Shown one piece after another: positions 30,311 through 61,031 of a stretch of 64,000 nucleotides of DNA; position 1 is the stretch's first letter; the number at the start of each line of letters is the position of its first letter. Position numbers and translations under genes: made by a program. The stretch comes from an uncultured Gemmatimonadota bacterium (GTDB lineage: Bacteria; JAAXHH01). The stretch lies in the NCBI GenBank assembly GCA_951812955.1, contig OX638340.1:224001-288000 (forward strand), given 5' to 3'. The notes beneath the pieces were generated by a model. That model was not told where the DNA came from. It saw only the letters and a list, made by a program, of their open reading frames with translations, and searched no databases.

Positions 30311-30394
30311 GCCGAAGTGGTGGAATTGGTAGACACGCTGTCTTGAGGGGGCAGTGGGAGAAATCCCGTCGCGGTTCGAATCCGCGCTTCGGCA
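30311..30394 (+). tRNA. leuU: tRNA-Leu(GAG), class II with long variable arm; CCA not encoded
   Basis: Manual fold: acceptor gccgaag/cttcggc, 3-bp D-stem, anticodon stem ctgtc/gggcag with loop ttGAGgg, long variable arm tgggagaaatccc, T-arm gcggttcgaatccgc. The 5' half is nearly identical to E. coli leuU. Confidence 0.85.
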
Positions 30395-30455
30395 TCCTTA
30401 CCTTTACCTTTACACGCGTCTAACTTACCAGTCCACGTCATCCGGAAGGCGTCCT

Positions 30456-32114
30456 ATGCGTCCGGTGCGTCCATTGGTTCGCATGATCGCAGGCCTTGCG
30501 ACCCTCGCGATCGTCTCCACGTCCCCCGGCCAAAGCCAGCGGACGAATTCGGTAGGCAAGATCATGCCTCCGGATGCCGCTCCCCTGTCCCGTCAAATCA
30601 TCCGCGTGATGAACATGGAGCCGCGCGGCCTCGATTCCGGCATCCATCCCTACGACGACGAAGGGCTGGTCCTGAGACCCTTCGAAATGCTGATGTGGCG
30701 GGACGAATTCATGCGTCCGATACCGGGCGCGGCCGAACGTTACGAGCGTTCCGAAGATGGACTGACGTGGACGTTCCACCTGCGGCCCGGCGCCCGGTGG
30801 AGCGACGGCCGCCCGGTCACCGCGCACGACTTCGTCTATACGTTCAGGCGCAACATCGATCCTGCGTCGGGAAACATCTACGCGAACTTCTATTACGATT
30901 TCAAGAATGCGCGGGCGATAAACCAGGGTTGGATCGAGGACATCGAACAGCTGGGCGTACGTGCGCTGGACGACCTGACTCTGGTGATCGAGACCGAACA
31001 GCCGACGCCCTACCTACTATACATCATCTCATTTCCGGACACCTTTCCTGCGCCGCGCTGGGCCGTGGAAAAGTATGGGCGCAAATGGACAGAACAGGGC
31101 AACATCGTCACCAACAGCGGCTTCAAGATGGCCGAGTGGGCGCCCGGCAGCCACATCAAATACGTGCCGGATCCCATGTATAACGGTCCCCACAAGCCCT
31201 TTCTGGAACAGGTCGTCCAGTTGTTCCGCGAGGCCGCGGTGGCCAACATACTGCCCTATGAGAATGACGAGGTGGACATGGAAGCCGTCGATCTCGCGGA
31301 GCTCCACCGCATAGAAAACGACCCCCGCCTGGGGAAGGAGATCGTCCGTTCGCCGAGTTACCAGACCTGGTACTTTATCTTCCGAACCCGGGAACCGCCC
31401 TTTGATGACGTCCGGGTCCGGGAAGCTTTCACCCGGGCCATCGACCGCGAGTCGATCTGCCGCGTTATTCTCCAGGGTGCTGGCATCCCGGCTTACTCGA
31501 TGATTCCGCCTGGTTTCGACGCCTACGCGGGGCCGGAATACAAGCTGTATCAGGGTTATGATCCGGGACGGGCCCGGCAGCTCATGGCAGAGGCCGGCTA
31601 CCCGAGGGGGCGGGGGTTCCCAACCGTAGAAACCTGGCTCAGGGCGCCCAATCCCATCACCCGCCGTATCGCCGAGGCGATTCAGGGGATGTTGCGAACA
31701 GATCTCGGGGTGAATATCACTTTCCGCAGCAGCGATATGGGTTCCTACATGAGCGCACTCTTCGACTGGCAGATACCCCTCGGTTTCATTGCCTGGGGAG
31801 CGGATTATCTCGACCCGAGGAACATGCTGGACATGACCTGGCATTCGCGGCCGCGCGGGGCGCAGCGGCAGGATTGGACCCATCCGGCCTTCGACGATCT
31901 CGTGGACCGGGCGATCGCGGAGCCCGATCCCGCCCGGCGCACGGAGATGTACCGGCAGGCCGAACGGATCCTCGTATCCGACTACGGCGGCGCCTTCATC
32001 TACCATCCGATCGGTTACGGACTCCGAAAACCCTGGGTGAAGGGATATGCCACGCGTCCCGACGGCACGGTAGGCAGCATGGTGTGGGACAAGGTTTATA
32101 TCGGTGAACACTGA
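30456..32114 (+). CDS. ABC-transporter family-5 (OppA/DppA-type) substrate-binding protein, orphan copy 1
   Basis: Signal peptide (MRPVRPLVRMIAGLATLAIVSTSPG); SBP_bac_5-like sequence; start ATG 30456 is preceded by GGAAGG. The longer ORF call from 30354 overlaps the tRNA and is rejected. Confidence 0.75.
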   Translation: MRPVRPLVRMIAGLATLAIVSTSPGQSQRTNSVGKIMPPDAAPLSRQIIRVMNMEPRGLDSGIHPYDDEGLVLRPFEMLMWRDEFMRPIPGAAERYERSEDGLTWTFHLRPGARWSDGRPVTAHDFVYTFRRNIDPASGNIYANFYYDFKNARAINQGWIEDIEQLGVRALDDLTLVIETEQPTPYLLYIISFPDTFPAPRWAVEKYGRKWTEQGNIVTNSGFKMAEWAPGSHIKYVPDPMYNGPHKPFLEQVVQLFREAAVANILPYENDEVDMEAVDLAELHRIENDPRLGKEIVRSPSYQTWYFIFRTREPPFDDVRVREAFTRAIDRESICRVILQGAGIPAYSMIPPGFDAYAGPEYKLYQGYDPGRARQLMAEAGYPRGRGFPTVETWLRAPNPITRRIAEAIQGMLRTDLGVNITFRSSDMGSYMSALFDWQIPLGFIAWGADYLDPRNMLDMTWHSRPRGAQRQDWTHPAFDDLVDRAIAEPDPARRTEMYRQAERILVSDYGGAFIYHPIGYGLRKPWVKGYATRPDGTVGSMVWDKVYIGEH

Positions 32115-32133
32115 CCGAAGAGAGGGCGGGGAC

Positions 32134-33432
32134 ATGGCCAGCGATCTCACTTCCGCGCCGGCGAATCAGCGTATCAACATGAGTTGCGGGCAGACGCCCC
32201 TCTCACCTGCCTGCCTCGCGGCCATCGGGGAGCAGCTCGTGGAACCGGTCTATTATGCTCATTACCCCGAGGTCGAAAAAGAAACCTGTCTCCTGCTCAA
32301 GCGGTTGATGCATACCAAAAACGGTCCCATGCTCATGCCGGGATCCGCCGTTTACGGCCTCGAAGCGGCCATGCTAAGCACCGTCGAGTCCGGTGACCAT
32401 GTGCTGACAGTCCAGACCGGCGTCTTCGGCCGGCTGCTGACGGAATTGGCCCGGTTCGCGGGCGGTAATACGACTGAGATCGCCCTCGAGGAAGGACAGG
32501 CTGTCGACCCGGAAACGATCCGTGGATATCTGCTCGACGACCCGGAAATCAGGCAGGTTGCACTGGTTCACTGCGAGACCACGACGGGCACCCTGAATCC
32601 CATCGAGGCAATCGGGCGAATGCTGAAGATGGAGTTTCCCCACGTGATCTACATGGTAGACTGCGTGTCGTCCTTCGGAGGGATCGAAGTGCGTGTCGAC
32701 GACTGGGGCATCGATCTGATGGTCACCACGACGCAGAAGTGCCTGAACGCGCCGCAGGGCCTGGCGTTAGTCGTAGCCAGTGAAAAGGCCTGGGACAAGA
32801 TCGAAAACCTACGTAGCGCGCCGCGCGCCATGTGCCTCGATCTCCACTCCTGGCGCCGCTACGGCATGGACGGAGGCGCCGCGCTGGGGTACGACACGTT
32901 CGACAGGGCGGGCGTTCCGCGTGCGCAAAGACCACATCCACGGGACTGGCCCGTTCACGGCCCCCATCCGTCCTACACCCTGGTCGTGGGACTGCACGCG
33001 TCGCTGAAGGCCATCATGGACGAGGGGCCGAAACGCGTCTACCGCCGCCAGTACGTCGCGTCCAGGGCGGTGCACGCGGCGTTGAGCGCCATGGGTCTCA
33101 GCATCGTAGCCGCGACAGAGAAGTCGGCCGCGCCTGTGGCGACGCGTATCGCGCAGCCCGCATCGCCGGACCAGCTCGACATGACCGAATTGCACCGGAT
33201 CCTCTTCGAAGATCACGGCATCGCGATCAGCAGCCTTGCCCGTATAGGGACCATGGGCTTTATGGCCGAACCCGGGCCGGTGCTTCGCACCATGTCTGCG
33301 TTGGAGCATACCCTGAACACATTGGGATGGGATGTGGAAGTAGGCACGGGCGTAACGGCGGCCAGGGAGGTATTCGAGCGCTCGGAGGTTTTTTACGGCC
33401 GGGCAGTCGGAAGCCAGGACGTATCCCCATGA
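32134..33432 (+). CDS. class-V (AGXT/serine-pyruvate type) PLP-dependent aminotransferase. Start is 32134 or 32179.
   Basis: PLP-lysine context TTQKCLNAPQG, a small-domain motif DxH...YLDL-like (MCLDLHSW), and overall AGXT-family N-terminus (TPLSP..L.A...........E). Confidence 0.6.
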   Translation: MASDLTSAPANQRINMSCGQTPLSPACLAAIGEQLVEPVYYAHYPEVEKETCLLLKRLMHTKNGPMLMPGSAVYGLEAAMLSTVESGDHVLTVQTGVFGRLLTELARFAGGNTTEIALEEGQAVDPETIRGYLLDDPEIRQVALVHCETTTGTLNPIEAIGRMLKMEFPHVIYMVDCVSSFGGIEVRVDDWGIDLMVTTTQKCLNAPQGLALVVASEKAWDKIENLRSAPRAMCLDLHSWRRYGMDGGAALGYDTFDRAGVPRAQRPHPRDWPVHGPHPSYTLVVGLHASLKAIMDEGPKRVYRRQYVASRAVHAALSAMGLSIVAATEKSAAPVATRIAQPASPDQLDMTELHRILFEDHGIAISSLARIGTMGFMAEPGPVLRTMSALEHTLNTLGWDVEVGTGVTAAREVFERSEVFYGRAVGSQDVSP

Positions 33433-33437
33433 CCGCG

Positions 33438-33460
33438 CTCCGACAGGCCTGCTGTCGGAG
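33438..33460. terminator. perfect 9-bp stem / 5-nt loop hairpin (ctccgacag-gcctg-ctgtcggag) between convergent genes
   Basis: Read from the sequence. It lies between the aminotransferase stop (33432) and the minus-strand SBP stop (33481). No U-tract, so it may act as a bidirectional or Rho-assisted terminator. Confidence 0.4.
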
Positions 33461-33480: not shown

Positions 33481-35250
33481 CTACTGATCGTCCTCAGGAC
33501 CGCTGGATCCGAACAGCCACTGCCACATATTCATGCTTCGGTCCTCAGCTGCACCGTCCTTCACGACGTCCTCGGTGACGTACAGCGTTGTAGACAGGTT
33601 CAGATGCTTGTCGACGCGTAACGCGAAACCGCCCAGGTCGTTACGCTCCAGCGCCTCGGTCCGCAGGTAGGGCTTCCACAGTTCGTTATGCTGACTGTGC
33701 CACAGGAACACGCCGGCCACGTCTTCGACCAATACGCGTTCTGCCTCGCGGTACAGCGCCATGCGACGGGACGGATCTCCAATCAGGTGATTGGCGATCT
33801 CCATGATGGATTCGAAACGTTCGTTGTACCAGGCATGGCGGCCCGTCGAAAGCCAGATACCAAGTAGATTGCTGGGATCCAGGTAGTCGTATCCATAGGG
33901 GATCATGGCGAAGGCGATGTTGCCTTCGTACATGGATTCCATGAAGAGTTTGGCCTCGGTGTTCTGCACGCCGATGTCGATGTTCAGATTCTGCTTGAGC
34001 ATAGCCTGTACCGCCTGGGGAGCCTGCCCCCCTTGCAGGTTGGTCCCCCTGATCCACATAATGGTCGGCGGAAACCCCTTGCCGTTCGGATAGCCGGCTT
34101 CCGCAAGCCGTTGACGTGCCAGGACAGGGTCGTATCGCTGTATGGGGGCGAGTTTCCCGGGATTCGCCGCGGGGAAACCTTCGGGCAACATCGACGTTGC
34201 GGGTACGGCAACCCCCCGAAGAGCGGAGTCGACCATCGCGTCGTTGTCTATGGCATGGCTGAAGGCCTGCCGCACCCGCAGGTCGTTGAATGGCGGCTTG
34301 AAGGTGTCCATCATCAGGTAGGTGGTACCGAAGGCCATGTAGGTGTCTAACTGGTCCCTTAGCCGGGGATCCGCCCTGACGCGGTTGATTTCCGCCTGGT
34401 TGGACAGCACGACGTGGTCCACGTCCCCGGTTTCGTAGGAGGAAAGCATGGGTGGCTGGGCCGCCACGTTGAACAGCCTGTTGACCACCCGCTCAAGATA
34501 GGGTTTGTGGGGCCCCCGGTAGTGGGGATTCGGCTCCAGCACGATGCGGTCAAGCTTCGACCATTCCACCAGCCTGAAGGGTCCGCTTCCCATCAGTGTT
34601 TCCGGCTTTGTAGACCAGCCCGCACCATATTTATCGAAAAGATGAGTGGGCGTCACCCAGCTGAAGGCCAGGATCAGGGGCAGGTAGGGAGTGGGATCTT
34701 CGGTTGTTATTGCCAGGGTGTGATCGTCCAGCGCTTTGACACCCAGGGAGTCGAGAGGCTGCTTGCCGGCAACGACCGCGCCCCAGTTCGTGATCGAACG
34801 GTAGTACCATTCGAGATCAAACCCCGTATTGGGGTCCGCCCACCGCTTGAAGGTGTCTTCGAAGTCATGCGCCGTAAGGGGATGACCGTCGGCGAAGATC
34901 AGGTTGGACTGGAGGTAAAAGGTCCAGGCGAGCCCGTCGTCCGATACAACCCACCGCGTCGCCGCGGCCGGCAGCAGGTTGTAGTTCCGATCCATGCGCA
35001 CAAGCGGTTCGTTGACCAGCGCATAGTCGTGTCCGACCACCTGGTAGTGGGAGGTGGCCATGTCAAGGTAGCGGTTCTCGGCCTTGAAACTGGTGAAGAC
35101 CTGGTACTCGGGCGGGGCCGCGTCGGGAGGAAGTGGTATGCCGATGGAGTTGATGTAGGGAGCGGGCGGGTCCGCGTCCTGCCAGGCCAATGCGGCCGTG
35201 CAGGCAATGCACGTCGCGGAGAGGAGCGCGACTATGAACCGGACTCTCAC
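33481..35250 (-). CDS. ABC-transporter family-5 substrate-binding protein, orphan copy 2
   Basis: Signal or lipoprotein-like N-terminus (MRVRFIVALLSATCIAC). Paralogous to copies 1 and 3; for example PLTAHDFEDTFKRW in this copy compares with PVTAHDFVYTFRRN in copy 1. Confidence 0.75.
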   Translation of the reverse strand: MRVRFIVALLSATCIACTAALAWQDADPPAPYINSIGIPLPPDAAPPEYQVFTSFKAENRYLDMATSHYQVVGHDYALVNEPLVRMDRNYNLLPAAATRWVVSDDGLAWTFYLQSNLIFADGHPLTAHDFEDTFKRWADPNTGFDLEWYYRSITNWGAVVAGKQPLDSLGVKALDDHTLAITTEDPTPYLPLILAFSWVTPTHLFDKYGAGWSTKPETLMGSGPFRLVEWSKLDRIVLEPNPHYRGPHKPYLERVVNRLFNVAAQPPMLSSYETGDVDHVVLSNQAEINRVRADPRLRDQLDTYMAFGTTYLMMDTFKPPFNDLRVRQAFSHAIDNDAMVDSALRGVAVPATSMLPEGFPAANPGKLAPIQRYDPVLARQRLAEAGYPNGKGFPPTIMWIRGTNLQGGQAPQAVQAMLKQNLNIDIGVQNTEAKLFMESMYEGNIAFAMIPYGYDYLDPSNLLGIWLSTGRHAWYNERFESIMEIANHLIGDPSRRMALYREAERVLVEDVAGVFLWHSQHNELWKPYLRTEALERNDLGGFALRVDKHLNLSTTLYVTEDVVKDGAAEDRSMNMWQWLFGSSGPEDDQ

Positions 35251-35285
35251 GGCAAATCCCCTTCTTCCCCGTCGGGTGATTCCGG

Positions 35286-35642
35286 TTACTCCAGGTACAG
35301 GATCACCTTGCCCGCTTCAATCTCCACCCGGTAGGTCTTGACCCGCATGCGGGGATCGTAGAGCGCCTGGCCGGTGGCGAGGTCGAACTCCCACTGGTGC
35401 CACGCGCACTTCAGGACCTGCTTCTCGTGGTGATCGACCGAGTATACTTCATCGGCCGTGACATAGGGTCTCAGTCGGCCGAGGCAGAGCGGTCCGCCCT
35501 TGTGTGGACAACGGTTCCTCAGGGCGTAGTACCGGCCGTCGACGTTGAACACGCCGATCCCGCCGCGCCCGCCCGCGGGGACGATCCGCCGCTCTCCGGG
35601 GGGCAGGTCATCCACGGCGGCGACCTCGTATCGCTCGCTCAT
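35286..35642 (-). CDS. Rieske [2Fe-2S] ferredoxin-like protein
   Basis: 118 aa with the Rieske ligands CPHKGGPL...CAWHQWEF (CxH...CxxH). Its start overlaps the upstream amidohydrolase stop (ATGA). Confidence 0.8.
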   Translation of the reverse strand: MSERYEVAAVDDLPPGERRIVPAGGRGGIGVFNVDGRYYALRNRCPHKGGPLCLGRLRPYVTADEVYSVDHHEKQVLKCAWHQWEFDLATGQALYDPRMRVKTYRVEIEAGKVILYLE

Positions 35643-36748
35643 CTGGTGGGGCTTCCCTGTTCGTCCAGGCCGTATAGATCCCGCGCGGTTTCCACGAATA
35701 CCTTTCGCTTCAGTCCCGAGTCAATCCCGGGCAGCACCGAATCGGGTGATTCCCAGTCCCAGTGAGGATAGTCGCTGGCGTAAACGAGGATCTCGTCCGC
35801 GTGAAGCCAGTCCAGGAAAGTACTGAGATCCCGGCGGGTCGGCGGCTGTTCCATGGGCTGGCATCCAAACCGGATGTGGCCGCGTATGTATTCACTGGGC
35901 AGGCGCTTGACCCAGGGCGTGTAGTCGCGTACCGCCTTCCAGTCCGCGTCCATATGCCACATCAGGCCCGGTACCCAGAAGGTGTCGTGTTCAATGAAAA
36001 GGAATTTGAGATCGGGGAATTTCTCGAAGGTCCCTTCGCAGATCAGGCTAACGACGTGGGCCATGGCGATCTGGGGACGGGCCATGCGCATTTCCAGGTA
36101 GTATGAAGGGTACCCGGCCGCCGTGGGGGCGTTGGCTATCCCGGCGCCCTCGACACCGAAGTGCACGCACATGGGAAGACGGCACGCCTGCGCGGCCTCG
36201 TAGATCGGGTCGTAGAACCGGTTGCCGAAGGGCATCCGTCCGCCGGCGGGCATGATGACCTGCAATACCTCGGGACGGTCGCCGATGCGCCGGATTTCCG
36301 CGGCCGCCTGCTGCGGATCCGTCGGCGCCACCGCCACCGACGCGCGGAAACGGCCGTCCGCCTTGATCCAGGTCTCCAGGGTCCAGTCGTTGAAAGCCCG
36401 GCACATGGCGGCGCCATAATCCGCGTTCGGGTGCACCGCCGCGCCGTACACGGTCACGCCCGTCAGTAGAGCCACGTCAATGCCGTACTCGTCGAGATGA
36501 TGCTCACGCGCCAGGTCGATGTTGCTGCTGGGGTGGGTCTCGGTGTGTTCCCATAATTCGGCGCGGCATCCGCCTTTCGGGAGGTTGGTGTACCCGACGC
36601 CGGGCATCATGGACCCGAAGTCCTTCACGTATTCCACGTAATGATCGGGGAGATAGGGGAACAGGTCTTCGATTTCCACCACACCGTGGTGCAGGTCGCA
36701 GTCGATGAGATTTAACTTCGAAGCGGACTTTCGTGCGACCTCGGCCAT
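35639..36748 (-). CDS. amidohydrolase-2 family (PF04909-type TIM-barrel metal-dependent hydrolase/decarboxylase)
   Basis: N-terminal LIDCDLHHG metal-binding motif, overall Amidohydro_2 pattern, and a conserved C-terminal Asp region (SDYPHWD). ATG at 36748 is preceded by GGAAGG; the TTG at 36820 is rejected. Confidence 0.7.
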   Translation of the reverse strand: MAEVARKSASKLNLIDCDLHHGVVEIEDLFPYLPDHYVEYVKDFGSMMPGVGYTNLPKGGCRAELWEHTETHPSSNIDLAREHHLDEYGIDVALLTGVTVYGAAVHPNADYGAAMCRAFNDWTLETWIKADGRFRASVAVAPTDPQQAAAEIRRIGDRPEVLQVIMPAGGRMPFGNRFYDPIYEAAQACRLPMCVHFGVEGAGIANAPTAAGYPSYYLEMRMARPQIAMAHVVSLICEGTFEKFPDLKFLFIEHDTFWVPGLMWHMDADWKAVRDYTPWVKRLPSEYIRGHIRFGCQPMEQPPTRRDLSTFLDWLHADEILVYASDYPHWDWESPDSVLPGIDSGLKRKVFVETARDLYGLDEQGSPTR

Positions 36749-37068: not shown

Positions 37069-37791
37069 ATGATATCCTGGATTTACGACCCCGAGGCATG
37101 GGTCGCCCTCGTCACGCTTACGACCCTTGAGATTGTGCTGGGCATCGACAACATCGTCGTGCTCTCGATTCTCGTAGGGCGTCTGCCGGCCCACCAACGG
37201 CAACGCGCACGCATCATAGGACTCGGGCTGGCCATGATCATGCGGCTGGGGCTGCTGCTCACGCTGGCCTGGATAATGACCCTGACGGCAACACTGTTCA
37301 CCGTGTTCAGCGAAGCTATTTCGGGCCGGGACCTCATTCTGATATTAGGAGGACTGTTCCTGCTCGTAAAGAGTACGACCGAGATCCATGGCACGTTCGA
37401 GGAACATCGCAAGACCGAAACTACCCCCAAAGTGAGCTCCTATGCAGGCGTGTTGATACAGATCGCGCTGATCGACATCATTTTCTCGCTGGATTCGGTC
37501 ATTACCGCGGTCGGTATGGCGGAACACGTACCCGTGATGATGCTCGCGATCATCATCGCCGTACTCTTCATGATGATGGCCGCCAGATCGATCGGGGATT
37601 TTGTCGATACCAATCCTACGGTGAAAATGCTGGCGCTGAGTTTTCTCGTGTTGATAGGCGTAGCGCTTATCGCCGACGGACTCGATCTTCATATTCCCAA
37701 GGGTTACATCTACTTCGCCATGGCCTTTTCGGTCGGCGTGGAGATGCTGAACATGCGCCTGCGGCGCCACCAGGACGGTTCCGGCAGTTAG
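37069..37791 (+). CDS. TerC-family integral membrane protein
   Basis: Hallmark TerC motifs LEIVLGIDNIVVLSIL and SLDSVITAVGM; roughly 7 TM helices. Confidence 0.85.
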   Translation: MISWIYDPEAWVALVTLTTLEIVLGIDNIVVLSILVGRLPAHQRQRARIIGLGLAMIMRLGLLLTLAWIMTLTATLFTVFSEAISGRDLILILGGLFLLVKSTTEIHGTFEEHRKTETTPKVSSYAGVLIQIALIDIIFSLDSVITAVGMAEHVPVMMLAIIIAVLFMMMAARSIGDFVDTNPTVKMLALSFLVLIGVALIADGLDLHIPKGYIYFAMAFSVGVEMLNMRLRRHQDGSGS

Positions 37792-43594: not shown

Positions 43595-45019
43595 TCACGG
43601 ATTTTCTGTCTTCGCCGCCGCATTCGAGCGCCGGCGCAGGTACAGGTAGGCAGGGATGCCGAGGGCAATCAGGGCGAGGCCCGATATGGACTCAACGGGG
43701 GTTTCGAAGAGCATGTTGGCGAGAATGCCGGCGGAACCGGCGATGAACAGCAGGGGAACGGCCGGGTAGCCCCAGGCTTTGTAGGGCCTGGGCAGGTCGG
43801 GCTGTTTCCTGCGCAGGGTGAATACCGCGGCCGCCCCGGCGATCCACAGCATGAGATTGGCGAAGGTGACAAAGGTAATCAGGTCTTCGAACGTACCGCT
43901 GAGGGTGAGCACGCATGCCCATGCGGCCTGAAAAATCACTGCCTGACCCGGTGTGCGGTACCTCGGATGTACCGTGCCCGCCCGTTTGAAGAACAGCCCG
44001 TCCCGCGCCATGGCGAAATAGACACGGGGTCCCACCAGGATGCTGGCGTTCAGCGCGCCGACGATGGACACGATGACGGCAGCCGAGATCAGTACGGCGC
44101 CCGTTTCTCCGAAGAGGGCGTTGGCAGCCACTTCACCGACCCGGACGATCCCGGCCATTTCCCCTACCGGCATGGCCTTCAGGTAGATGTAGTTCACCAG
44201 CAGATAGACCACGGTGACGCTCGCGGTGCCCACGACGAGAGCCCGGGGCAGGTTTCGCGCCGGGTCCCTGACCTCTCCCGCTACGAAGGTAACTTCCTCC
44301 CATCCGGCGAAGGCCCAGGCGACGGCGATAAGGGCGACGCCGAAAGCGACCACCAGTTGCCCGAAGTCAATATCCTGCGGGTTGATCCTGAAGTCGATGG
44401 GCTGTGTGGACCCGCTCCAGAGTCCGAACAGGATGAACAAACCGAGCGCGGCGACCTTGATCACCGAGGACACGTTGGTGATGTGCTTGCTGAAGGTGAC
44501 GCCCCGGTAATTTACGACCGTAAGCAGGACGACCAGGGCCAGTGCCGTGACGTGGCCGGCGGAAAGGGAATACTGAAACGTCCAGCCTGGAAGGGCGATT
44601 TCGGTTTCGAAGAATACGTTGGCCATCCCGAAGGAGGGGATGAAGTACCCGGCGTATTCTGCGAATCCCACGGCGAGCGCGGCGATGATTCCGGTCAGGT
44701 ACATGGTGAAGGACACCCAGCCGAAGAGGAATCCGCAGAACGGACCGTAAGCTTCCCGGAGATATACGTACTGGCCGCCGGCCCTGGGCATGGCGGCTCC
44801 GAGCTCGGAGTAGGCCAGCGCGCCGGCGAGGGCGTGCAGTCCGCCGAACAGCCAGGCAAGGAGTATGAGCGAGGCCGAGGGTATGCCCCGGGCCATCAGG
44901 CCGGTGGTGAGGAAAATCCCCGAACCGATCACGATGCCGATAATGATCATCGTGGTGTCGAAAAGACCGAGCTGGCGGACCAGGCCAGTCTTTTCTTTTT
45001 GATCGCTCGGAATTGCCAT
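43595..45019 (-). CDS. APC-superfamily amino acid/polyamine permease
   Basis: 12-TM protein with the APC N-terminal signature (TTMIIIGIVIGSGIF) and an overall amino-acid permease pattern. Confidence 0.8.
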   Translation of the reverse strand: MAIPSDQKEKTGLVRQLGLFDTTMIIIGIVIGSGIFLTTGLMARGIPSASLILLAWLFGGLHALAGALAYSELGAAMPRAGGQYVYLREAYGPFCGFLFGWVSFTMYLTGIIAALAVGFAEYAGYFIPSFGMANVFFETEIALPGWTFQYSLSAGHVTALALVVLLTVVNYRGVTFSKHITNVSSVIKVAALGLFILFGLWSGSTQPIDFRINPQDIDFGQLVVAFGVALIAVAWAFAGWEEVTFVAGEVRDPARNLPRALVVGTASVTVVYLLVNYIYLKAMPVGEMAGIVRVGEVAANALFGETGAVLISAAVIVSIVGALNASILVGPRVYFAMARDGLFFKRAGTVHPRYRTPGQAVIFQAAWACVLTLSGTFEDLITFVTFANLMLWIAGAAAVFTLRRKQPDLPRPYKAWGYPAVPLLFIAGSAGILANMLFETPVESISGLALIALGIPAYLYLRRRSNAAAKTENP

Positions 45020-45057
45020 ATATTGAGAATAGGGGACGTTCCGCGGGGTGGCCGCAC

Positions 45058-45969
45058 ATGGATGCGATCACGGCCCAGGCGGGCATATGGAAGTGGAAAG
45101 CGAACCTCCATGTTACGGGGACGGTTCGCCTAAGTCAAGGTGGGATTGCTGCAGGAAGGAAACCTCGATTGAACGATACGGCGCTGGACCTCATCGACTC
45201 GACGACCTACCCCATTCACCGGCCAGGATCGGCCACGTACAGCGCACTTGTCGCAAGGTGCAGGGATGATCTGGCGGACCGAAGCGCCTGCCTGTTGCCC
45301 GGATTCGTCACGGAGGAGGCCAGGGTACGGATGGTGGCCGAGGTGGACCGTGCCGCGCCCAGCGCTTTTCCTTGCCGGAACGCCCATAACGTATACCTCG
45401 AGGAGCACGACGGCGCCTTTCCGCCCGACCACCCCCGGCGAAGGCTCCAGGCAACGGACCTGGACTCGGTCGCCTTCGATCAGATGCGTCCCACAGACGG
45501 TCTGCACCAGTTGTATTCCTGGGATCCGCTCCTTTCCTTCATAGCCGACGTCCTCAACAAGGAACACTATTACAGGATGGCCGACCCCTTTGCCGCGCTG
45601 ACGGTTAACGTCATGCGAGAGGGACAGAACCACGGCTGGCATTTCGACGAGTCCGAGGCTACGACTACCCTGATGGTACAGGCGCCCGAAGAAGGCGGCG
45701 CATTTGAGTACGCACCGAACGTCCGTCCGGAGGAAGGCGGGTCATACGATACCGTGGAACGGGTGCTGCGCGGCAGCTATCCGGACGTACGTACACTCGC
45801 CGTGAAGCCCGGTACGCTGATCCTCTTCGTCGGCTACCATTCCATGCACCAGGTGACACCGGTCAAGGGTCCGGTTACCCGGTATGTCGCCACGCTCTGC
45901 TATAAGGACCGGCCCAATGTCTGCAACAGCCCCGAGGTACAGAAGCTGTTCTACGGTCGGACGGCATGA
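45058..45969 (+). CDS. putative Fe(II)/2-oxoglutarate-dependent oxygenase-like protein (cupin/DSBH fold), family unassigned
   Basis: Candidate facial triad HxD...H (HGWHFDESE ... VGYHSMHQV) with a downstream Arg (VTRYVATL). No closer family could be assigned by eye. Confidence 0.4.
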   Translation: MDAITAQAGIWKWKANLHVTGTVRLSQGGIAAGRKPRLNDTALDLIDSTTYPIHRPGSATYSALVARCRDDLADRSACLLPGFVTEEARVRMVAEVDRAAPSAFPCRNAHNVYLEEHDGAFPPDHPRRRLQATDLDSVAFDQMRPTDGLHQLYSWDPLLSFIADVLNKEHYYRMADPFAALTVNVMREGQNHGWHFDESEATTTLMVQAPEEGGAFEYAPNVRPEEGGSYDTVERVLRGSYPDVRTLAVKPGTLILFVGYHSMHQVTPVKGPVTRYVATLCYKDRPNVCNSPEVQKLFYGRTA

Positions 45970-46032
45970 CGAAGGGAGTTTACGGGAAGAAGGTCGTTTT
46001 TGGAGATCGCTCAAGGACCAGGAGGTGGACCA

Positions 46033-47307
46033 TTGCACGCAGTGATCATTGGGAACGGCGTAACAGGGGTAACAGCCGCCACGCGGCTCCGGCAGCTTCA
46101 GCCCGACTGGAAGGTCACGCTGGTATCGGGTGAATCGGCCTTCCACTATTCCCGCCCCGCACTCATGTACATCTTCATGGGGCACATGACCTACGAGGCG
46201 ACGAAACCCTTCGAGGACAGTTTCTGGCGAGACCAGCGGCTGGACCTGGTCCGAGACTGGGTCACCGCCATCGATATCGACGACAGGCAACTGGTTCTAC
46301 ACCGGAACGGACGCCTGCCCTACGACCGTCTGCTGATCGCCACCGGCGCCAAATCGAACAAGTTCGGATGGCCGGGCCAGGACCTCGATGGCGTCCAGGG
46401 CCTGTACAACCTGAAAGACCTGCATCAACTGTATAAAAACGCCGAACGGGCCAGTCACGCGGTCATCGTCGGCGGCGGGCTGATCGGCATCGAACTCGCC
46501 GAGATGCTGCATTCGAGGCATATCCACGTCACGTTTCTCATACGCGAGCCCTCCTACTGGCGCAACATCCTGCCCATGGAAGAATCGGGCATGCTGAACC
46601 GGCTGATCGAGGAGCAGGGCATCGGCCTGATCAAGGAGACCAACCTGAAGGAAATCGTGGACGACGGCACAGGAAAGGTCGAAGCGGTCATTACCGAGTT
46701 CGACGACCGGATCGACTGCCAGCTGGTCGGTCTGACGCCGGGTGTTTCGCCCAACACGGACCTGGTCAAGTCGACGCCCATCGAAACGGGGCGGGGCGTC
46801 CTGGTCGACAACGCGTTCCGTACGAACATACCCGACATCTACGCCGCCGGGGACTGTGCGGAAATCGTCAGCCGGAACGGGGGACGCAACCTGATCCAGC
46901 AGGTCTGGTACACGGGCAAGAAGCAGGGCAAGGTCGCCGGTGAGGTGCTGGCCGGACAGGATACGGAGTACGACCCTGGGATCTGGTACAATTCGGCCAA
47001 GTTCTTCGACCTGGAGTACCAGACCTACGGCATGATTCTGAATACGCCCCAGCCCGGAGAGCGCCACCTTTTCTGGGAACATCCATCCCATCGCCACGCC
47101 GTCCGCATCGTCGGCGTCGACGGGTGCATCAAGGCATTCAATTTCATGGGGATCAGGGCCCGCCACGAAGTATGTGAGCGGTGGATTGCCGAGCGGCGTA
47201 CCGTGGAGTACGTCCTGGACCACCTGGAAGAAGCCAACTTCGATCCGGAGTTTTTCGTCCGCCACGAGTCGGAGATCGTTCGCTCATTAAAGGAGCAACT
47301 CGCATGA
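46033..47307 (+). CDS. FAD/NAD(P)-binding pyridine nucleotide-disulfide oxidoreductase family reductase (ferredoxin/rubredoxin-reductase-like, with no redox-active CxxxxC pair)
   Basis: Two Rossmann motifs (AVIIGNGVTGVTAA and AVIVGGGLIGIELAE) and a C-terminal dimerisation-like domain. The TTG at 46033 is preceded by AGGAGGTG at a 5-nt spacing. Confidence 0.75.
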   Translation: MHAVIIGNGVTGVTAATRLRQLQPDWKVTLVSGESAFHYSRPALMYIFMGHMTYEATKPFEDSFWRDQRLDLVRDWVTAIDIDDRQLVLHRNGRLPYDRLLIATGAKSNKFGWPGQDLDGVQGLYNLKDLHQLYKNAERASHAVIVGGGLIGIELAEMLHSRHIHVTFLIREPSYWRNILPMEESGMLNRLIEEQGIGLIKETNLKEIVDDGTGKVEAVITEFDDRIDCQLVGLTPGVSPNTDLVKSTPIETGRGVLVDNAFRTNIPDIYAAGDCAEIVSRNGGRNLIQQVWYTGKKQGKVAGEVLAGQDTEYDPGIWYNSAKFFDLEYQTYGMILNTPQPGERHLFWEHPSHRHAVRIVGVDGCIKAFNFMGIRARHEVCERWIAERRTVEYVLDHLEEANFDPEFFVRHESEIVRSLKEQLA

Positions 47308-48758
47308 GCACACCGCCCGCTGCACCGACGTTGATCGATCCGGAATCCATTTCGTACTTCTACGACGAGGAGGCCGAAGGGTTCGGCGAGCCCGAGTCCG
47401 CGGCGGAGGCGCCCAGGAACCCGGGCATGATGGTCTCCGCCGGCGTGATCGGGCTGGGTTTCCTCGCGCTCGTCGTATCCCTGCTCGGTATGCCGCTCTC
47501 AGGCGCCTGGACGCCCTTCCTGCTGTCCTTCGGCCTGCTGTCTGCCGGAACCATCGGTTACGTCTGGTTCACGTACAGGGACACGGTGCCCGGTATCAAG
47601 CACGACGGCATCATGTTCGGAAACACGACACACCGCGGCGCCATCGCCTGGGCGCTGGGCATCGCGCTCACCGGGTTCTACGTCGTACTGTACTGGTGGC
47701 CCGAATACCTGTCGCGTGCCATCGCGCTCGTTGAGCCGCTGTCGCAGGTCCTGGCGGGGCAGCCGGCGAACCAGTGGTTTCTATACGGGTTTCTCTACAC
47801 GATGGCCGTGGTGCTCTTCGGATTCCGCATGTTCATGCGTTACCGCCACAACCGTTATCACATCATCCGAACGATTTCGGTCATGTTCTTTCAACTGGTC
47901 CTGGCCTTCGTCCTTCCCCAGTTCCTCCGCGCGCTGAACGAACCGGAGTTCTACTTCAGCTACTTCTGGCCCCTGAAGTACGACTACCTGTTCCCCGGTA
48001 CCGTGGATTACCTGGTCAACAGCCCGGGCGCCCTGGGTTCGTTCATGGTGTTCTGGGGGGTGGCCTGCACGTTTATCGCCACGCCCGTGCTGACCTATTT
48101 CTACGGCAAGCGGTGGTACTGTTCCTGGGTATGCGGCTGCGGCGGGCTCGCCGAAACCCTCGGCGACCCCTGGCGGCACCTGACGCCCAAATCGACCGTA
48201 TCGTGGAAAATCGAACGGGCGATCATTTACGCGGTGCTCCTGCTCATCATCGCGACGACGGCCGTGCTCTGGGTGAGCAGCACGTCCGAAGGCGCGCTGA
48301 GCGCCATTTCCGCTCCGTTGAAACAGTGGTACGGTTTCTACATCGGCGCGGTCTTCGCCGGGGTCATCGGAGTAGGGTTCTATCCCATACTCGGCAATCG
48401 GGTCTGGTGCCGCTTCGGGTGCCCGATGGCCGCGGTGCTGGGCATCATCCAGCGCTTCTTCTCCCGGTTCCGAATCACAACCAACGGCGGGCAGTGCATG
48501 TCCTGCGGTAACTGCACGACCTATTGCGAAATGGGCATCGACGTGCGGGCCTATGCGGAGCGCGGCGAGAATATCGTCCGGTCTTCCTGCGTGGGATGCG
48601 GGGTCTGTTCGGCCGTGTGTCCCCGGGGCGTGCTCAAGCTCGAGAACGGCATGTCCCACGGAGACCGCTACCCGGGGTCCGACAAACCGCTGAGCGCTTT
48701 CTCCGAGGCCGTCAGCAAGGGCGCCAGGGTCTACGGCGACCGCGATGGCTACGTATAG
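47304..48758 (+). CDS. NapH/MauN-like membrane-bound polyferredoxin (multi-TM, CxxxCP motifs plus two C-terminal 4Fe-4S clusters)
   Basis: About 8 predicted TM helices. Cytoplasmic motifs are CSWVCGCGG and CRFGCP (NapH-type Cx3CP). C-terminal CMSCGNCTTYCEM and CVGCGVCSAVCP are 4Fe-4S ferredoxin signatures. Its ATG overlaps the stop of the upstream reductase (ATGA) and is preceded by AAGGAG. Confidence 0.75.
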   Translation: MSTPPAAPTLIDPESISYFYDEEAEGFGEPESAAEAPRNPGMMVSAGVIGLGFLALVVSLLGMPLSGAWTPFLLSFGLLSAGTIGYVWFTYRDTVPGIKHDGIMFGNTTHRGAIAWALGIALTGFYVVLYWWPEYLSRAIALVEPLSQVLAGQPANQWFLYGFLYTMAVVLFGFRMFMRYRHNRYHIIRTISVMFFQLVLAFVLPQFLRALNEPEFYFSYFWPLKYDYLFPGTVDYLVNSPGALGSFMVFWGVACTFIATPVLTYFYGKRWYCSWVCGCGGLAETLGDPWRHLTPKSTVSWKIERAIIYAVLLLIIATTAVLWVSSTSEGALSAISAPLKQWYGFYIGAVFAGVIGVGFYPILGNRVWCRFGCPMAAVLGIIQRFFSRFRITTNGGQCMSCGNCTTYCEMGIDVRAYAERGENIVRSSCVGCGVCSAVCPRGVLKLENGMSHGDRYPGSDKPLSAFSEAVSKGARVYGDRDGYV

Positions 48759-51667: not shown

Positions 51668-53311
51668 TTATTTCCGGCTTTTGTATAGCCGTGAATACAT
51701 GAGGCCGCCTACGGTGCCGTCGGGGTACCTGGTATAACCCTTCAGGTTCGATTTGCGAAGCTGCATCGTGAGGGGATGGAACACGAAGGCGGCGGCGTAG
51801 TCCCCCACGAGAATCTCCTCCGCCTGCCTGTAGAGACTCGTGCGCCTTACCGGGTCCAGTTCCGCACCGGCGCTTTCCACCAGCGCATCGAATTCGGAAT
51901 CCGCCCAGTCGTGCCGCCCCGCGCCTTTCGGCTGGGAGTGCCAGGTCATGTCGAGCATGTTGCGGGGGTCCATGTAATCGGCGACGAACCGCAGAAAGCC
52001 GAAGTCCATTTCCCAGTTGTACAGTTTGCTCATGTAGGCCGTCCGGTCCAGGGTCCGGATGGAGACTTTAACCCCGAGGTGCTCCAGCAGCATGCTCTGA
52101 ATAGCGACGCCCGCCATCTGCATGGAAGGCGTCGGCGCCCGAATCCACATTTCCTGCCTGGGAAACCCTCTTCCGTTCGGATAGCCGGCCTCCCGCATCA
52201 GCGTTTTCGCCCGCTCGGGATCGAAAGCCTGGTACGGTTTCATGGCATCGCCGTTGTACTCCTTGAAGTCCGGGGGCATCATGGAATAGGCCGGTGCAGC
52301 AGCCCCTCTCAGGACCACCTGGCTGATAGCCTCCCTATTCAGCGCACGTGCAAAGGCCTCCCTTACTCGTATGTCATTGAAGGGCGGATCGGACGTGTTG
52401 AAGAACAGGTACCAGGTCGTTCTTCCGGGAGATCTGACGAGTTCCCGGCTGAGCACCGGGTGCCGTTCGATTCGATCCAGGTCGTTGATGTCTACCGTTT
52501 CCACGTCCACTTCGTTGTTTTCGTAGGCCAGGACGGTCTGCGCCGCCGCGTAGCGGAAGGGATGAATGACCTTCTCCAGCAAAGGTTTGTGGGGACCGTT
52601 GTACATGGGATCGGGCACGAAGGTCATGTGGCTGCCGGTCGCCCATTCGGCCATCCGGAAGCCGGAATTCGACACGATGTTTTCGACTTCGGTCCATCTC
52701 CGGCCATGTTTCTCGACGGCCCATCGCGGCGTGGGGTACGCCAGGCCGAAGGACACGACGTGGGGAAAATGGGGCGCGCCGCGCTCCAGAAGCACCTGCA
52801 GCGTTAGATCGTCCACGGCCCTGACGCCCAGTTGAGCCAGATCCTCGATATCTCCGAGACTGATTTCCTTCGCGTTCATGATGTCATAATAGAAGAAGGC
52901 GTAGGGATTGGCGTTGGCGGGATCGAGCATGCGTCTGAAAGCGTAGACGAAATCGTGGGCCGTAACGGGCCTGCCATCGTTCCAACGCGCGCCGGGACGC
53001 AGATGGAACGTCCATTCCCGGGCGTCGTCGGAGACGTCGTAACCGGTGGCGGCGGCCGGGATGGGCTGCCACAACTCGTCTCTGATGAGCAGGGTCTCGA
53101 AGGGCAGCAGCGTGGACTCGCCGTCGTACAGGTTGATCTGGATGTCGAGGCTGCGCGGTTCGGGACTCATCACGCGGAAAACCTGCTGGTCCGGCGGCGC
53201 CGCGTCGGCGGGCAAGGCGACACCGACCGAATTGGAGTGTTGACCATGGATAAGACAAGCCGGCGACAGAGTAGCCGCGGCCAGAAGCAAGACGGAGCGT
53301 ATCCTGAACAT
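51668..53311 (-). CDS. ABC-transporter family-5 substrate-binding protein, orphan copy 3
   Basis: Signal or lipoprotein-like N-terminus (MFRIRSVLLLAAATLSPAC). About 60% identical over long stretches to copy 1 (for example WTFHLRPGARWNDGRPVTAHDFVYAFRR versus WTFHLRPGARWSDGRPVTAHDFVYTFRR). Confidence 0.8.
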   Translation of the reverse strand: MFRIRSVLLLAAATLSPACLIHGQHSNSVGVALPADAAPPDQQVFRVMSPEPRSLDIQINLYDGESTLLPFETLLIRDELWQPIPAAATGYDVSDDAREWTFHLRPGARWNDGRPVTAHDFVYAFRRMLDPANANPYAFFYYDIMNAKEISLGDIEDLAQLGVRAVDDLTLQVLLERGAPHFPHVVSFGLAYPTPRWAVEKHGRRWTEVENIVSNSGFRMAEWATGSHMTFVPDPMYNGPHKPLLEKVIHPFRYAAAQTVLAYENNEVDVETVDINDLDRIERHPVLSRELVRSPGRTTWYLFFNTSDPPFNDIRVREAFARALNREAISQVVLRGAAAPAYSMMPPDFKEYNGDAMKPYQAFDPERAKTLMREAGYPNGRGFPRQEMWIRAPTPSMQMAGVAIQSMLLEHLGVKVSIRTLDRTAYMSKLYNWEMDFGFLRFVADYMDPRNMLDMTWHSQPKGAGRHDWADSEFDALVESAGAELDPVRRTSLYRQAEEILVGDYAAAFVFHPLTMQLRKSNLKGYTRYPDGTVGGLMYSRLYKSRK

Positions 53312-56122: not shown

Positions 56123-57523
56123 ATGGTGGACAGATCCTTCCTGTTCGATGACGACGCCATGCGCGACTTTATCGTAAACGGCTACCACGTGATCAACGTG
56201 GATCAGCCGGTTGCGCTCCACGACGGGATTTACGAGAAGACGAAGGCGATCATCGACGATGACGGGAATCCGGGAAACAACCTGTTGCCGCGTGTGCCCG
56301 AGATCCAACAGGTCTACGACGATCCTGCTGTTCAAGGCGCACTGACGAGCCTGCTCGGACCGGACTACGTCATGCACGCTCACCGCCACCCGCACGTAAA
56401 CCCGCCGAACAGCCGTGGAGGCAGCTGGCACAAGGACAGTTACTGGGGTTACACCAAGGTGCGGGATCACCATCCGCGGTGGATCATGGCCATGTACTAC
56501 CCCCAGGACACCCCGGTTGAAATCGGACCGACGGGGGTAATACCCGGCAGCCACTACTTCGAGTCCCGCGAAGAGACCGTAGGAGGGAACGGGTCGGTCC
56601 CAGATGGATTCCCCGCGAGCGGCAAGGCGGGAACCATTACCATCATACACTTCGACCTCTGGCACCGGGCGTTTCCGAACGCAACGGACAAGGTCCGCTA
56701 TATGATGAAATTCCAGTTTACGAGAATGTCAGAGCCGAACCGCCCCTGCTGGAACAATCAACGAGATGAAATCGACCTGGGCGACCTGTCGGACGATCCC
56801 CGGAGCGCCATGTGGCGGAACATGTGGCACTGGCTTGCCGGAAACGGCTCGGCGGGAGCCAGGCGGGAAGGCGAGGAACACGTCGAGGCGCTTGCCCGGG
56901 ACCTGACGCATGAACTCGAACAGAAGCGTTTGCACGCGGCCTATAACCTGGCCGAGTGCGGAGAATCCGCGCTTCCGCATTTCCTCGAAGCACTGCAACA
57001 CGAAAGGGATGAAGTCCGGCGTGAAGCGTGTTATGGACTAAGCGCGCTGGGTACCGCCGCCGTAGATCCGTTGGTCTCTCTGCTCGGACACGAGAACGAA
57101 CGCGTCAGGGGATACGCGGTTTACGCCCTTGGAGACATCCGGCACCACAACCCATCGGTTACGGGGCACCTCGCGGGTCATACAGACGACCCATCGCCTT
57201 TTGTCCGGCAGAACGTGGCCGATGCACTGGGCCAGATCAGGCTGGCTGCGGATTCGTCCGTTCCCGCGCTGATCGGTATGATGAAGGACGAGGATGAGCA
57301 GGTTCGGTCCAGAACCGCCTATGCGCTGGCCCGATTCGGAGTCGAGGCTCAGACGGCCGTTCAAGACCTTGCGGATGCGTGCTACGATGAAAACCGGTAT
57401 GTACAGGGGCATGCCGCCGTTGCCCTCGAACAGATCGGCACGCCAGAAGCCCTGCGCACGCTGCTGCACTGGCTGCAGGCCTCGCGGTGGTGTCCACTGA
57501 CGACGGCGAAGAGCACGTTTTAG
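56123..57523 (+). CDS. PhyH-like Fe(II)/2OG dioxygenase domain fused to a C-terminal HEAT (PBS-lyase-type) repeat domain
   Basis: N-terminal ~230 aa carry a PhyH-type facial triad (HKDSY ... HFDLWHRAF). The C-terminal ~200 aa contain at least five ~31-aa HEAT-like repeats (for example DEVRREACYGLSALG, NERVRGYAVYALGDI, SPFVRQNVADALGQI, DEQVRSRTAYALARFG, NRYVQGHAAVALEQIG). Confidence 0.7.
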   Translation: MVDRSFLFDDDAMRDFIVNGYHVINVDQPVALHDGIYEKTKAIIDDDGNPGNNLLPRVPEIQQVYDDPAVQGALTSLLGPDYVMHAHRHPHVNPPNSRGGSWHKDSYWGYTKVRDHHPRWIMAMYYPQDTPVEIGPTGVIPGSHYFESREETVGGNGSVPDGFPASGKAGTITIIHFDLWHRAFPNATDKVRYMMKFQFTRMSEPNRPCWNNQRDEIDLGDLSDDPRSAMWRNMWHWLAGNGSAGARREGEEHVEALARDLTHELEQKRLHAAYNLAECGESALPHFLEALQHERDEVRREACYGLSALGTAAVDPLVSLLGHENERVRGYAVYALGDIRHHNPSVTGHLAGHTDDPSPFVRQNVADALGQIRLAADSSVPALIGMMKDEDEQVRSRTAYALARFGVEAQTAVQDLADACYDENRYVQGHAAVALEQIGTPEALRTLLHWLQASRWCPLTTAKSTF

Positions 57524-57617
57524 CGGTCGGCACACCCCGATTTAATCCGTGGTCTTGCGCTGTCCATGCGGTCCGCCAGCCCATGCGGTCCGCCAGGTAC
57601 GAGTTCACTCCCGCCTG

Positions 57618-59588: not shown

Positions 59589-59620
59589 TCAGGTCTCGCA
59601 TCGGTCTATGGATACCGGAT

Positions 59621-59686
59621 CAGCAGGCCGTCGCGGCGTATGTCCTTGCGTCAGCAGGCCGTCGCGGCGTATGTCCTTGCGTCAGG
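59621..59686. repeat. tandem 2.1 x 31-bp direct repeat (cagcaggccgtcgcggcgtatgtccttgcgt)
   Basis: Copies at 59621-59651 and 59652-59682 are identical, and a partial third copy follows. The repeat abuts the sulfatase stop codon and lies upstream of the membrane-protein start. Confidence 0.9.
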
Positions 59687-61031
59687 CAGACTGGCGTTCC
59701 CGCCATTCGACCTCCATGGGATCGGGGATGGCGTAGGGTTTGACGCGTTGTTCGTGCAGCCACTCCGACAGGTAGTGATCCATGCGTTGCTGGATTTCCG
59801 GCCGTTCCAGGGCCAGGTTGTACGTCTGATTCGGGTCGTTACGCATATCATACAAGGCCACTGGATCGAACCGGTAACCGAAGTCGTCGTACGTCCTGAC
59901 CATGAGATGGCCGGGTGTCCGCACCGCCCGTTGCAACGTGTACAGGCCGTGACCCCAGACCAGGAAGTCGTGCAGGTGGCAGCGTCCGGTCGCGAGTCCT
60001 TCCGCGAAAGACCGGCCGTCATAGTATTCCGGTACTTCCCCGCCAATCAGGTCGATCAGCGTGGCGCTGAAATCTACATTGTATAGCAGGTCGTCACAAG
60101 AGGATCCTGGCGGCGTAGTCCCCGGCCACTTGATGATCAGCGGGACCCGGTGTATGCATTCGTCGGCGCAGACGTGATCCCCGTAGATGCCGTGCTCTCC
60201 CATGGCCTCGCCGTGATCCGCCGAGACGATGACCGCCGTGTCGTCCAGGCTGCCCAGGGCGTCCAGCACCTGCTCCACGTGATGGTCGGCGTACCGGATC
60301 TCCGCGTCGTATCCGGTCACCAGGTGATTCAGGTCGTCCGTGTTCCGGATGGCGTCCGGCATATTCGGCGTGGGACTGGGCCGGTTCTGGGGAAAGAGGT
60401 GGGACGCGGTGAACCAACCGTCGATGTCCTGGTGGCCGCGGATCGCTTCGTTGTCCGGCCAGCTCACCGCCGGCGGATGGGCCGTCATACGTTCGAACCG
60501 GTCGCGGGGGGCTTCGTAAACCCGGTGCGGGTCCCAGTAGTTGATGTACAGGAAGTAATCGTCCCGGTCGCCGTTCGCGGCGATCCATTTCAGTACGGCT
60601 TCGTTGACCTCGTCCGCCGTCTCGTCCCCCGTCTTCAGGTTGGGCGAATGGAACTCCGACCAGCCCAGCCCGAACCAGGTCGCGCAGTGCCGGGTGGGGA
60701 AGTTGGAGAAGCAGACCGTGTCGTAGCCGTGCTGGCGCAGCCGTCTTTGCACCAACTGGTTCCGCTCGTCGGGCCCGCCGTAGCGCTGCTCCAGGATGTG
60801 AAGCCTGGAAGCGGGACCGCCGTGGGTCACCACGCCGTTGTTGATCCCGAAACGGCCGGTTATCCAGCCGTGCCGCGAAGGCATGCAGGGAGAGTCTGCG
60901 CAGTAGTACCGGTCGAACCGCATCCCCTGCGCGGCGATTTCATCGATGGCGGGCGAGGTGGGCCGGCCGTAGCCGTAGCAACCCAGGTGGTCGGGCCTCA
61001 GACTGTCGATGTCGAAATAGACGATGCGCAA
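59682..61031 (-). CDS. Cys-type sulfatase (arylsulfatase family) without a signal peptide. TTG start.
   Basis: N-terminal sulfatase domain begins at residue 2 (RIVYFDIDSLRPDHLGCYG). The formylglycine motif is C-x-P-S-R-xxx-[LI]TGR (SPCMPSRHGWITGR). Confidence 0.8.
   Translation of the reverse strand: MRIVYFDIDSLRPDHLGCYGYGRPTSPAIDEIAAQGMRFDRYYCADSPCMPSRHGWITGRFGINNGVVTHGGPASRLHILEQRYGGPDERNQLVQRRLRQHGYDTVCFSNFPTRHCATWFGLGWSEFHSPNLKTGDETADEVNEAVLKWIAANGDRDDYFLYINYWDPHRVYEAPRDRFERMTAHPPAVSWPDNEAIRGHQDIDGWFTASHLFPQNRPSPTPNMPDAIRNTDDLNHLVTGYDAEIRYADHHVEQVLDALGSLDDTAVIVSADHGEAMGEHGIYGDHVCADECIHRVPLIIKWPGTTPPGSSCDDLLYNVDFSATLIDLIGGEVPEYYDGRSFAEGLATGRCHLHDFLVWGHGLYTLQRAVRTPGHLMVRTYDDFGYRFDPVALYDMRNDPNQTYNLALERPEIQQRMDHYLSEWLHEQRVKPYAIPDPMEVEWRERQSA

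Follow-up and report, generated by a model that had tools for sequence, protein, structure and literature searches.

The window analysed here (64,000 nt; GenBank assembly GCA_951812955.1, contig OX638340.1, positions 224,001 to 288,000 of the forward strand) stems from an uncultured Gemmatimonadota bacterium and is chromosomal (dcw cluster, ftsZ, valS, mreBCD, pfk and tpi present). At positions 33481–36748 it carries a minus-strand operon of three genes encoding, in order, a protein of the Pfam family Amidohydro_2 (PF04909), a small Rieske ferredoxin and a family-5 solute-binding protein (SBP), designated SBP_A. The three genes, the ATGA overlap of the first two and the 35-nt distance to the third had been described in an earlier note made from the letters of the window; open reading frames (ORFs) and sequence bore out this anatomy in full. 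The features of the operon are as follows.

35639..36748, minus strand: SfbO-like gene of an amidohydrolase-related dinuclear oxygenase (ARO); 369 aa from ATG; PF04909 4.9e-32

35639..35642, minus strand: ATGA stop/start overlap of the ARO and Rieske genes (coupling), read in the sequence as …ACC AGA TGA / ATG AGC…

35286..35642, minus strand: SfbR-like small Rieske [2Fe-2S] ferredoxin gene; 118 aa; PF00355 1e-15, PF13806 7e-10

35251..35285, minus strand: 35-nt spacer from the Rieske gene to the SBP_A gene; GAAGGGGA Shine-Dalgarno-like run ahead of GTG 35250

33481..35250, minus strand: gene of the OppA-like family-5 solute-binding protein SBP_A; 589 aa, GTG start; PF00496 1.6e-82

The longest ORF of the ARO gene begins further upstream, at TTG 36820 (alternative start). 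A sigma-70-like promoter for the operon was looked for and none was found; the terminator scan gave no terminator in the 35251–35285 spacer. The SBP_A gene is very probably co-transcribed with the ARO–Rieske pair.

The product of 35639–36748 matches the Pfam Amidohydro_2 model over positions 1–289 of 289; no NCBIfam model matches it. Among solved structures it matched SfbO from Litorilinea aerophila (PDB 8SM6) over the full length with 560 bits (E = 2.4e-167); BLASTP identity to SfbO was 65% (236/361). Further scores: three more AROs, from PMC10811679 – 293, 234 and 222 bits; AibH1 and AibH2 – 196 and 155 bits; PtmU3 and DitZ – 54 and 44 bits; LigW, gamma-resorcylate decarboxylase and similar enzymes – 21–52 bits, partial alignments only. 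SfbO was found by seeking PF04909 genes adjoining small Rieske genes; its cofactor is dinuclear (Fe2 or Mn/Fe), and it carries out O2-dependent C–H hydroxylation of 2-aminoethylsulfonates (2-(N-morpholino)ethanesulfonate, MES; piperazine-N,N′-bis(2-ethanesulfonate), PIPES), yielding sulfoacetaldehyde; the class name ARO was coined in the same work, with AibH2 and PtmU3 as earlier members (PMC10811679).

Both motifs by which AROs are defined, an N-terminal D-x-H and, after ~200 residues or more, a C-terminal D-x-P-H-x-[D/E] (PMC13154177), are present: D18-L19-H20, aligning with D30-V-H32 of SfbO, and D326-Y-P328-H329-W330-D331, followed by W332. In an alignment of 23 homologues (61–89% identity) D18, H20, D326, P328, H329, W330 and D331 are invariant and Y327, an x position, is nearly so. 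Low-potential, Mn-using AROs are described as having a hydrophobic gamma1, a small gamma3, an aromatic gamma4 and a hydrophobic gamma5 residue, a gamma5 Trp being implicated in the docking of the Rieske partner (PMC13154177); the protein of the window has L19, Ala, W330 and W332 at these positions, as in SfbO. Four of the five residues reported for the sulfate site of SfbO (N67, R232, R235 and W341) correspond to N55, R221, R224 and W330, all invariant in the same alignment. The fifth, listed as Tyr280 (PMC10811679), could not be placed, since counting along the 8SM6 chain gives Asp at 280; the other four listed residues fit the 8SM6 numbering exactly. As judged from similarity and motifs, the 35639–36748 product is an SfbO-type ARO, a relative of the Mn/Fe monooxygenase SfbO.

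In the earlier note the protein had been placed among the PF04909 enzymes that act on aromatic acids (ACMSD, LigW and gamma-resorcylate decarboxylase type), and no oxygenase catalytic subunit was thought to be encoded at the locus. Neither statement held. Since the ARO motifs are present and the score to SfbO is 560 bits, vs 52 bits or less to the decarboxylases, the catalytic subunit that seemed to be missing is, by these marks, the PF04909 protein itself. It falls into a non-aromatic subfamily, a result that the note itself had named as adverse, and with an oxygenase present in the operon nothing points to aromatic substrates. The puzzle of a ferredoxin without an oxygenase is already answered in the literature; the protein adds to the known SfbO system, and the lineage-specific addition to that system is the OppA-like binding protein in the operon.

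The 118-aa Rieske protein is complete: its Rieske_2 match covers residues 6–114 (model positions 4–102 of 104), and the ligands C45-P-H47 and C79-A-W-H82, together with the Trp within C-x-W-H, are invariant (one representative per clade, 16 clades). It is a stand-alone carrier, as had been supposed, and no truncated remnant of a larger oxygenase. For comparison, 91 loci with SfbO-like proteins (62–100% identical, the window included) were assembled, the ARO proteins were grouped into 17 clades (single linkage at 82% identity), and the ORFs within 7 kb were clustered. A same-strand Rieske gene was found downstream of the ARO gene in 90/91 loci (tblastn), the exception being a short contig; in most other clades the two genes overlap or are parted by ~70 nt or less. 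De novo ORF clustering gave ARO and Rieske as the sole neighbours recurring in more than three of the 17 clades. Among the called genes of the window, the Pfam scan gave no Rieske oxygenase alpha subunit (Rieske plus Ring_hydroxyl_A), for which a search had been proposed. Since the Rieske gene accompanies the ARO gene in 90 of the loci and no alpha subunit occurs among the scanned genes, the 118-aa protein is assigned as the electron donor to the ARO, of SfbR/AibG type by its size (<250 aa), its C-x-H … C-x2-H ligands and its gene adjoining the ARO gene. For SfbO and SfbR, evidence of interaction was obtained by electron paramagnetic resonance (EPR) (PMC13154177).

The same data bear on the model of the earlier note, in which the PF04909 protein is a metal-dependent decarboxylase or hydrolase for aromatic or heterocyclic acids, with the Rieske protein as partner of a Rieske oxygenase encoded elsewhere. 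The subfamilies are inseparable by Pfam alone, and the Rieske protein is weakly similar to HcaC/BphF-type ferredoxins, all below curated cutoffs; the model is nevertheless very improbable in view of the bit scores, the regular Rieske pairing, the lack of an alpha subunit among the scanned genes and the presence of both ARO motifs, which no characterised PF04909 hydrolase or decarboxylase is reported to have (PMC13154177).

Compared with known systems, the locus resembles SfbO/SfbR of L. aerophila (PDB 8SM6; Liu et al., JACS 2024, PMC10811679; JACS 2026, PMC13154177) in the full-length identity of the oxygenase, both ARO motifs, the gamma1, gamma3, gamma4 and gamma5 residues, four of five sulfate-site residues and the Rieske gene immediately downstream; it differs in its host, an uncultured organism of another lineage, in the ATGA overlap and in the OppA-like SBP of the operon, and it is known from sequence alone. 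The 2-aminoisobutyrate hydroxylase AibH1H2/AibG/AibF of Rhodococcus wratislaviensis (PDB 6M1W, 8FUL) shares the ARO fold, a dinuclear site of Mn/Fe type and a small Rieske ferredoxin encoded in the operon, but pairs two PF04909 paralogues in a heterodimer and has a dedicated reductase (AibF), whereas a single ARO and no operon reductase are found in the window. PtmU3 and DitZ are likewise PF04909 TIM-barrel dinuclear hydroxylases; unlike the protein of the window they are diiron-only and high-potential, with a hydrophilic gamma1, variable gamma4 and gamma5 and usually no Rieske neighbour (PMC13154177). LigW, gamma-resorcylate decarboxylase and ACMSD (21–52 bits, as above) have the Pfam family and the TIM-barrel fold in common with it, but contain mononuclear Zn/Mn or no metal, use other N-terminal ligands and lack both the D-x-P-H-x-D/E loop and a redox partner.

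An SfbO/SfbR-type two-component monooxygenase, with the SBP probably supplying its substrate or a precursor, is the likely explanation of the locus as a whole. Gene anatomy, family membership (by sequence and motifs) and the conserved Rieske pairing are shown; the scheme that follows, which extends to the metals, the chemistry, the class of substrate and what SBP_A does, is inferred. The TIM-barrel protein would bind a dinuclear Mn/Fe (or Fe2) cofactor via D18, H20, D326, H329 and further conserved His/Glu residues. Electrons would pass from NAD(P)H through a ferredoxin reductase encoded elsewhere to the Rieske cluster, and the Rieske ferredoxin, docking probably at the W330/W332 surface, would hand them one at a time to the Mn/Fe site. 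This site would activate O2 and hydroxylate an aliphatic C–H bond of an anionic substrate, most likely a sulfonate whose amine is beta to the sulfonate group; N55, R221, R224 and W330 would hold it. Were it an N-substituted taurine, the product, a hemiaminal, would break down into sulfoacetaldehyde and the free amine. The OppA-like SBP would probably deliver the substrate or a precursor to a shared Opp-type ATP-binding cassette (ABC) translocator encoded outside the window. Aliphatic 2-aminoethylsulfonates are the only substrates known for the family, and their oxidative N-dealkylation was shown solely for L. aerophila SfbO, with surrogate substrates (PMC10811679); a search of the searchable literature gave nothing on a native SfbO substrate beyond these two studies, PMC10811679 and PMC13154177, and no paper found names one.

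A second unit converges on the operon from the plus strand.

30354..33432, plus strand: convergent two-gene unit, second OppA-like binding protein SBP_B (30354–32114) and class-V aminotransferase (32104–33432), 11-nt overlap

33438..33460, no strand: 9-bp perfect inverted repeat within the 48-nt convergent spacer; possible bidirectional stem

The aminotransferase (start 32104/32134, end 33432; class V, Pfam 7.5e-20; AGXT/PucG/PhnW family) best matches pyridoxamine-pyruvate transaminase and PucG-type enzymes, under all curated cutoffs. The unit is syntenic in 16/19 loci of the window's clade and in no other clade. In another reading the oxygenase would act on a phosphonate, such as a derivative of 2-aminoethylphosphonate (AEP), instead of a sulfonate, and would work with this aminotransferase as a PhnW-like enzyme; the EPR signal of the Mn/Fe site in SfbO is strongly perturbed by AEP at 20 mM (PMC10811679), and the aminotransferase scores 125–135 bits against PhnW models. 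These scores are, however, far under the cutoffs of 296–401 bits, the best matches are the two other enzyme types just named, the gene lies in a separate convergent unit linked to the operon in the window's clade only, and PMC10811679 reports no turnover of phosphonates by SfbO; a phosphonate substrate is improbable.

The aminotransferase and the operon had also been said to share a terminator hairpin. The convergence and the 9-bp repeat are real; the repeat has no U-tract, was not called by the terminator scan and does not fold more stably than shuffled sequences (z = -0.3). A canonical intrinsic terminator common to the operon and the aminotransferase gene was rejected, only a U-less hairpin being present.

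SBP_A has an N-terminal signal peptide ending …AALA/WQ, the mature chain starting at about residue 23, and matches OppA (1b05) with 189 bits over residues 90–529, OppA and MppA being its nearest solved relatives. Like these cluster-C proteins, it keeps the equivalent of OppA Asp419, which anchors the ammonium group of the ligand; unlike OppA, it has Met in place of Arg413 and Gly in place of His371, the residues for the peptide carboxylate, has no OppBCDF genes nearby and is encoded in an oxygenase operon. In the window's clade the SBP gene lies directly downstream of the ARO–Rieske pair in 19/19 loci, its start 392–450 nt past the ARO stop in 18/19; this arrangement occurs in no other clade. 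The orthologue at the syntenic locus L001 (11998–13086; ARO 89% identical) was called at only 362 aa, with split tblastn and HMM matches; either the gene is a frameshifted pseudogene or the assembly is at fault. Elsewhere, an SBP gene in the Spirochaetia clade is divergent and lies beyond housekeeping-type genes; Caldilineaceae offer a weak case of a nearby family-5 SBP; at a Litorilinea locus, genes of an entire Opp-type ABC system come after the pair, along with those of a luciferase-like oxidoreductase and an SBP.

Several findings weigh against an SfbO/SfbR-type monooxygenase supplied by SBP_A. On the side of the enzyme, the Km of SfbO for PIPES is 83 mM, and PIPES is regarded by the authors as a surrogate (PMC10811679); Xsc, which consumes sulfoacetaldehyde, was found near no homologue examined; a dedicated reductase is absent from the operon, the window's only candidate being a distant gene:

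46000..47307, plus strand: FAD/NAD(P)H ferredoxin-reductase-like gene (Pyr_redox_2); PF07992 4e-48; 9.3 kb away

Its product is HcaD-like at 140 bits, under the 450-bit cutoff, and no linkage of the gene to ARO is conserved in other clades; its assignment as third component of the system is speculative. Two Xsc candidates were rejected: for the thiamine pyrophosphate (TPP) enzyme next to the Litorilinea locus the best match is PRK08266, and that of Poribacteria is acetolactate-synthase-like (PRK08322, 770 bits).

On the side of uptake, a family-5 SBP was found by HMM search within 7 kb in only 4/17 clades, and directly downstream in one; BPD_transp_1 permease and ABC_tran ATPase genes occur neither in the operon nor elsewhere in the Pfam-scanned 64-kb window, which holds three SBP_bac_5 paralogues (30354–32114, plus; 33481–35250 and 51668–53311, minus); and SBP paralogues of ~60% identity sit in orphan tandem arrays of three, free of transporter genes, in a related genome (L091 4395–9782: three in tandem behind a Peptidase_M23 gene). 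In this lineage the orphan binding proteins form an expanded family; since SBP_A belongs to it, its adjacency to the pair may reflect lineage history and not function. On these grounds, and because the solved proteins closest to it are ordinary OppA and MppA, SBP_A might be a bystander beside a genuine ARO–Rieske monooxygenase, a general peptide-uptake OppA paralogue placed there by lineage-specific gene order. This is a serious possibility, if short of probable; it is opposed by the terminator-free 35-nt spacer with its ribosome-binding-like site, by the preservation of the arrangement in all 19 clade loci at ~85% nucleotide identity, by the replacement of R413 and H371 and by the Opp-type system that independently adjoins the pair in Litorilinea.

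A link between SBP_A and the enzyme is plausible; that it is dedicated to the enzyme is suggested by the gene order of one lineage. Of the uptake-plus-transformation module proposed in the earlier note, the module as such may still hold, resting on synteny within that lineage, and the aromatic or heterocyclic compound was given up. A more specific proposal, that SBP_A is the dedicated receptor for the physiological substrate of the SfbO family, an amine-bearing organosulfonate (N-substituted taurine or taurine–peptide conjugate), is tentative and on balance unlikely.

Divergent from the operon lies a further gene:

37069..37791, plus strand: TerC/YkoY-family membrane protein gene; divergent from ARO, adjacency within the window's clade only

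The TerC/YkoY family is linked to Mn export and is often riboswitch-controlled. No yybP-ykoY or other RNA family matched in the window at the Rfam gathering thresholds, and a Mn riboswitch upstream of this gene was rejected. Positions 45013–48758 (plus) encode a HalD-like 2-oxoglutarate/Fe(II) oxygenase, the Pyr_redox_2 flavoprotein (46000–47307) and a membrane protein of 525 aa that has 4Fe-4S dicluster motifs; of these, the genes for the oxygenase and the flavoprotein are syntenic in L001. Together at 56123–61031 lie genes for a PhyH dioxygenase with fused HEAT repeats, a membrane protein of DUF6785/DUF6784 type and a sulfatase; in L004 (12512–21110; distant Latescibacterota) DUF6785 proteins are encoded directly downstream of the ARO–Rieske pair.

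The closest of the 91 loci (85–95% ARO identity; ~85% nucleotide identity over ~13 kb) belong to metagenome-assembled genomes (MAGs) labelled Latescibacterota, Gemmatimonadetes or ‘bacterium’, with chromosomes of ~3.9 Mb (OY762445.1 and OZ241838.1 are examples of complete related chromosomes); next come 28 Poribacteria loci, then Spirochaetia, Acidobacteriota, other Latescibacterota and Caldilineaceae. SfbO-like proteins of 62–80% identity (L005–L084) occur in MAGs of at least six labelled phyla (Poribacteria, Latescibacterota, Acidobacteriota, Spirochaetia, Gemmatimonadota and Chloroflexota); the similarity is unusually high for lineages so far apart, which suggests that the genes spread horizontally or were retained in connection with habitat. 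The homologues number 2,766. For the 91 loci and 17 clades, the idea of a shared gene neighbourhood pointing to the substrate was rejected: the other wide clusters were overlapping-frame artefacts of the ARO and Rieske genes, and the remaining neighbours are heterogeneous (sulfatases, UxuA-like, galactonate-dehydratase-like, GH109/GFO, PhyH, SSF symporter, DUF1501).

Within the Poribacteria clade, genes for a HEPN-domain protein and an AAA_16/ORC-CDC6-like ATPase are inserted between ARO and Rieske in L085 and L086 (L085 10282–12458), with transposase genes near the insertion; the inserted pair has the look of a defence-type or mobile insertion separating the two components of the enzyme. In about ten more Poribacteria loci (L024, L031–L035, L037, L038 and L043 among them) the Rieske gene lies 2.36–2.43 kb past ARO, the same spacing of ~2.4 kb.

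The case corrects a common misannotation of AROs as amidohydrolases; about 17,000 ‘putative amidohydrolases’ are estimated to be dinuclear oxygenases (PMC13154177). The SfbO family is common in MAGs of Poribacteria, Latescibacterota, Acidobacteriota and Spirochaetia, which hints at an ecological role in host-associated marine bacteria. Poribacteria and several isolate-name prefixes of the relatives presumably stem from sponge and coral microbiome studies. If SBP_A does receive an amine-bearing organosulfonate, the operon would represent a new route of sulfonate scavenging, in which Opp-type import is followed by Mn/Fe-dependent oxidative N-dealkylation to sulfoacetaldehyde; such sulfonates would plausibly be abundant in marine-invertebrate hosts. 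Binding proteins are easily screened for ligands, and SBP_A would thus offer a modest but practical handle on the native substrate of SfbO.

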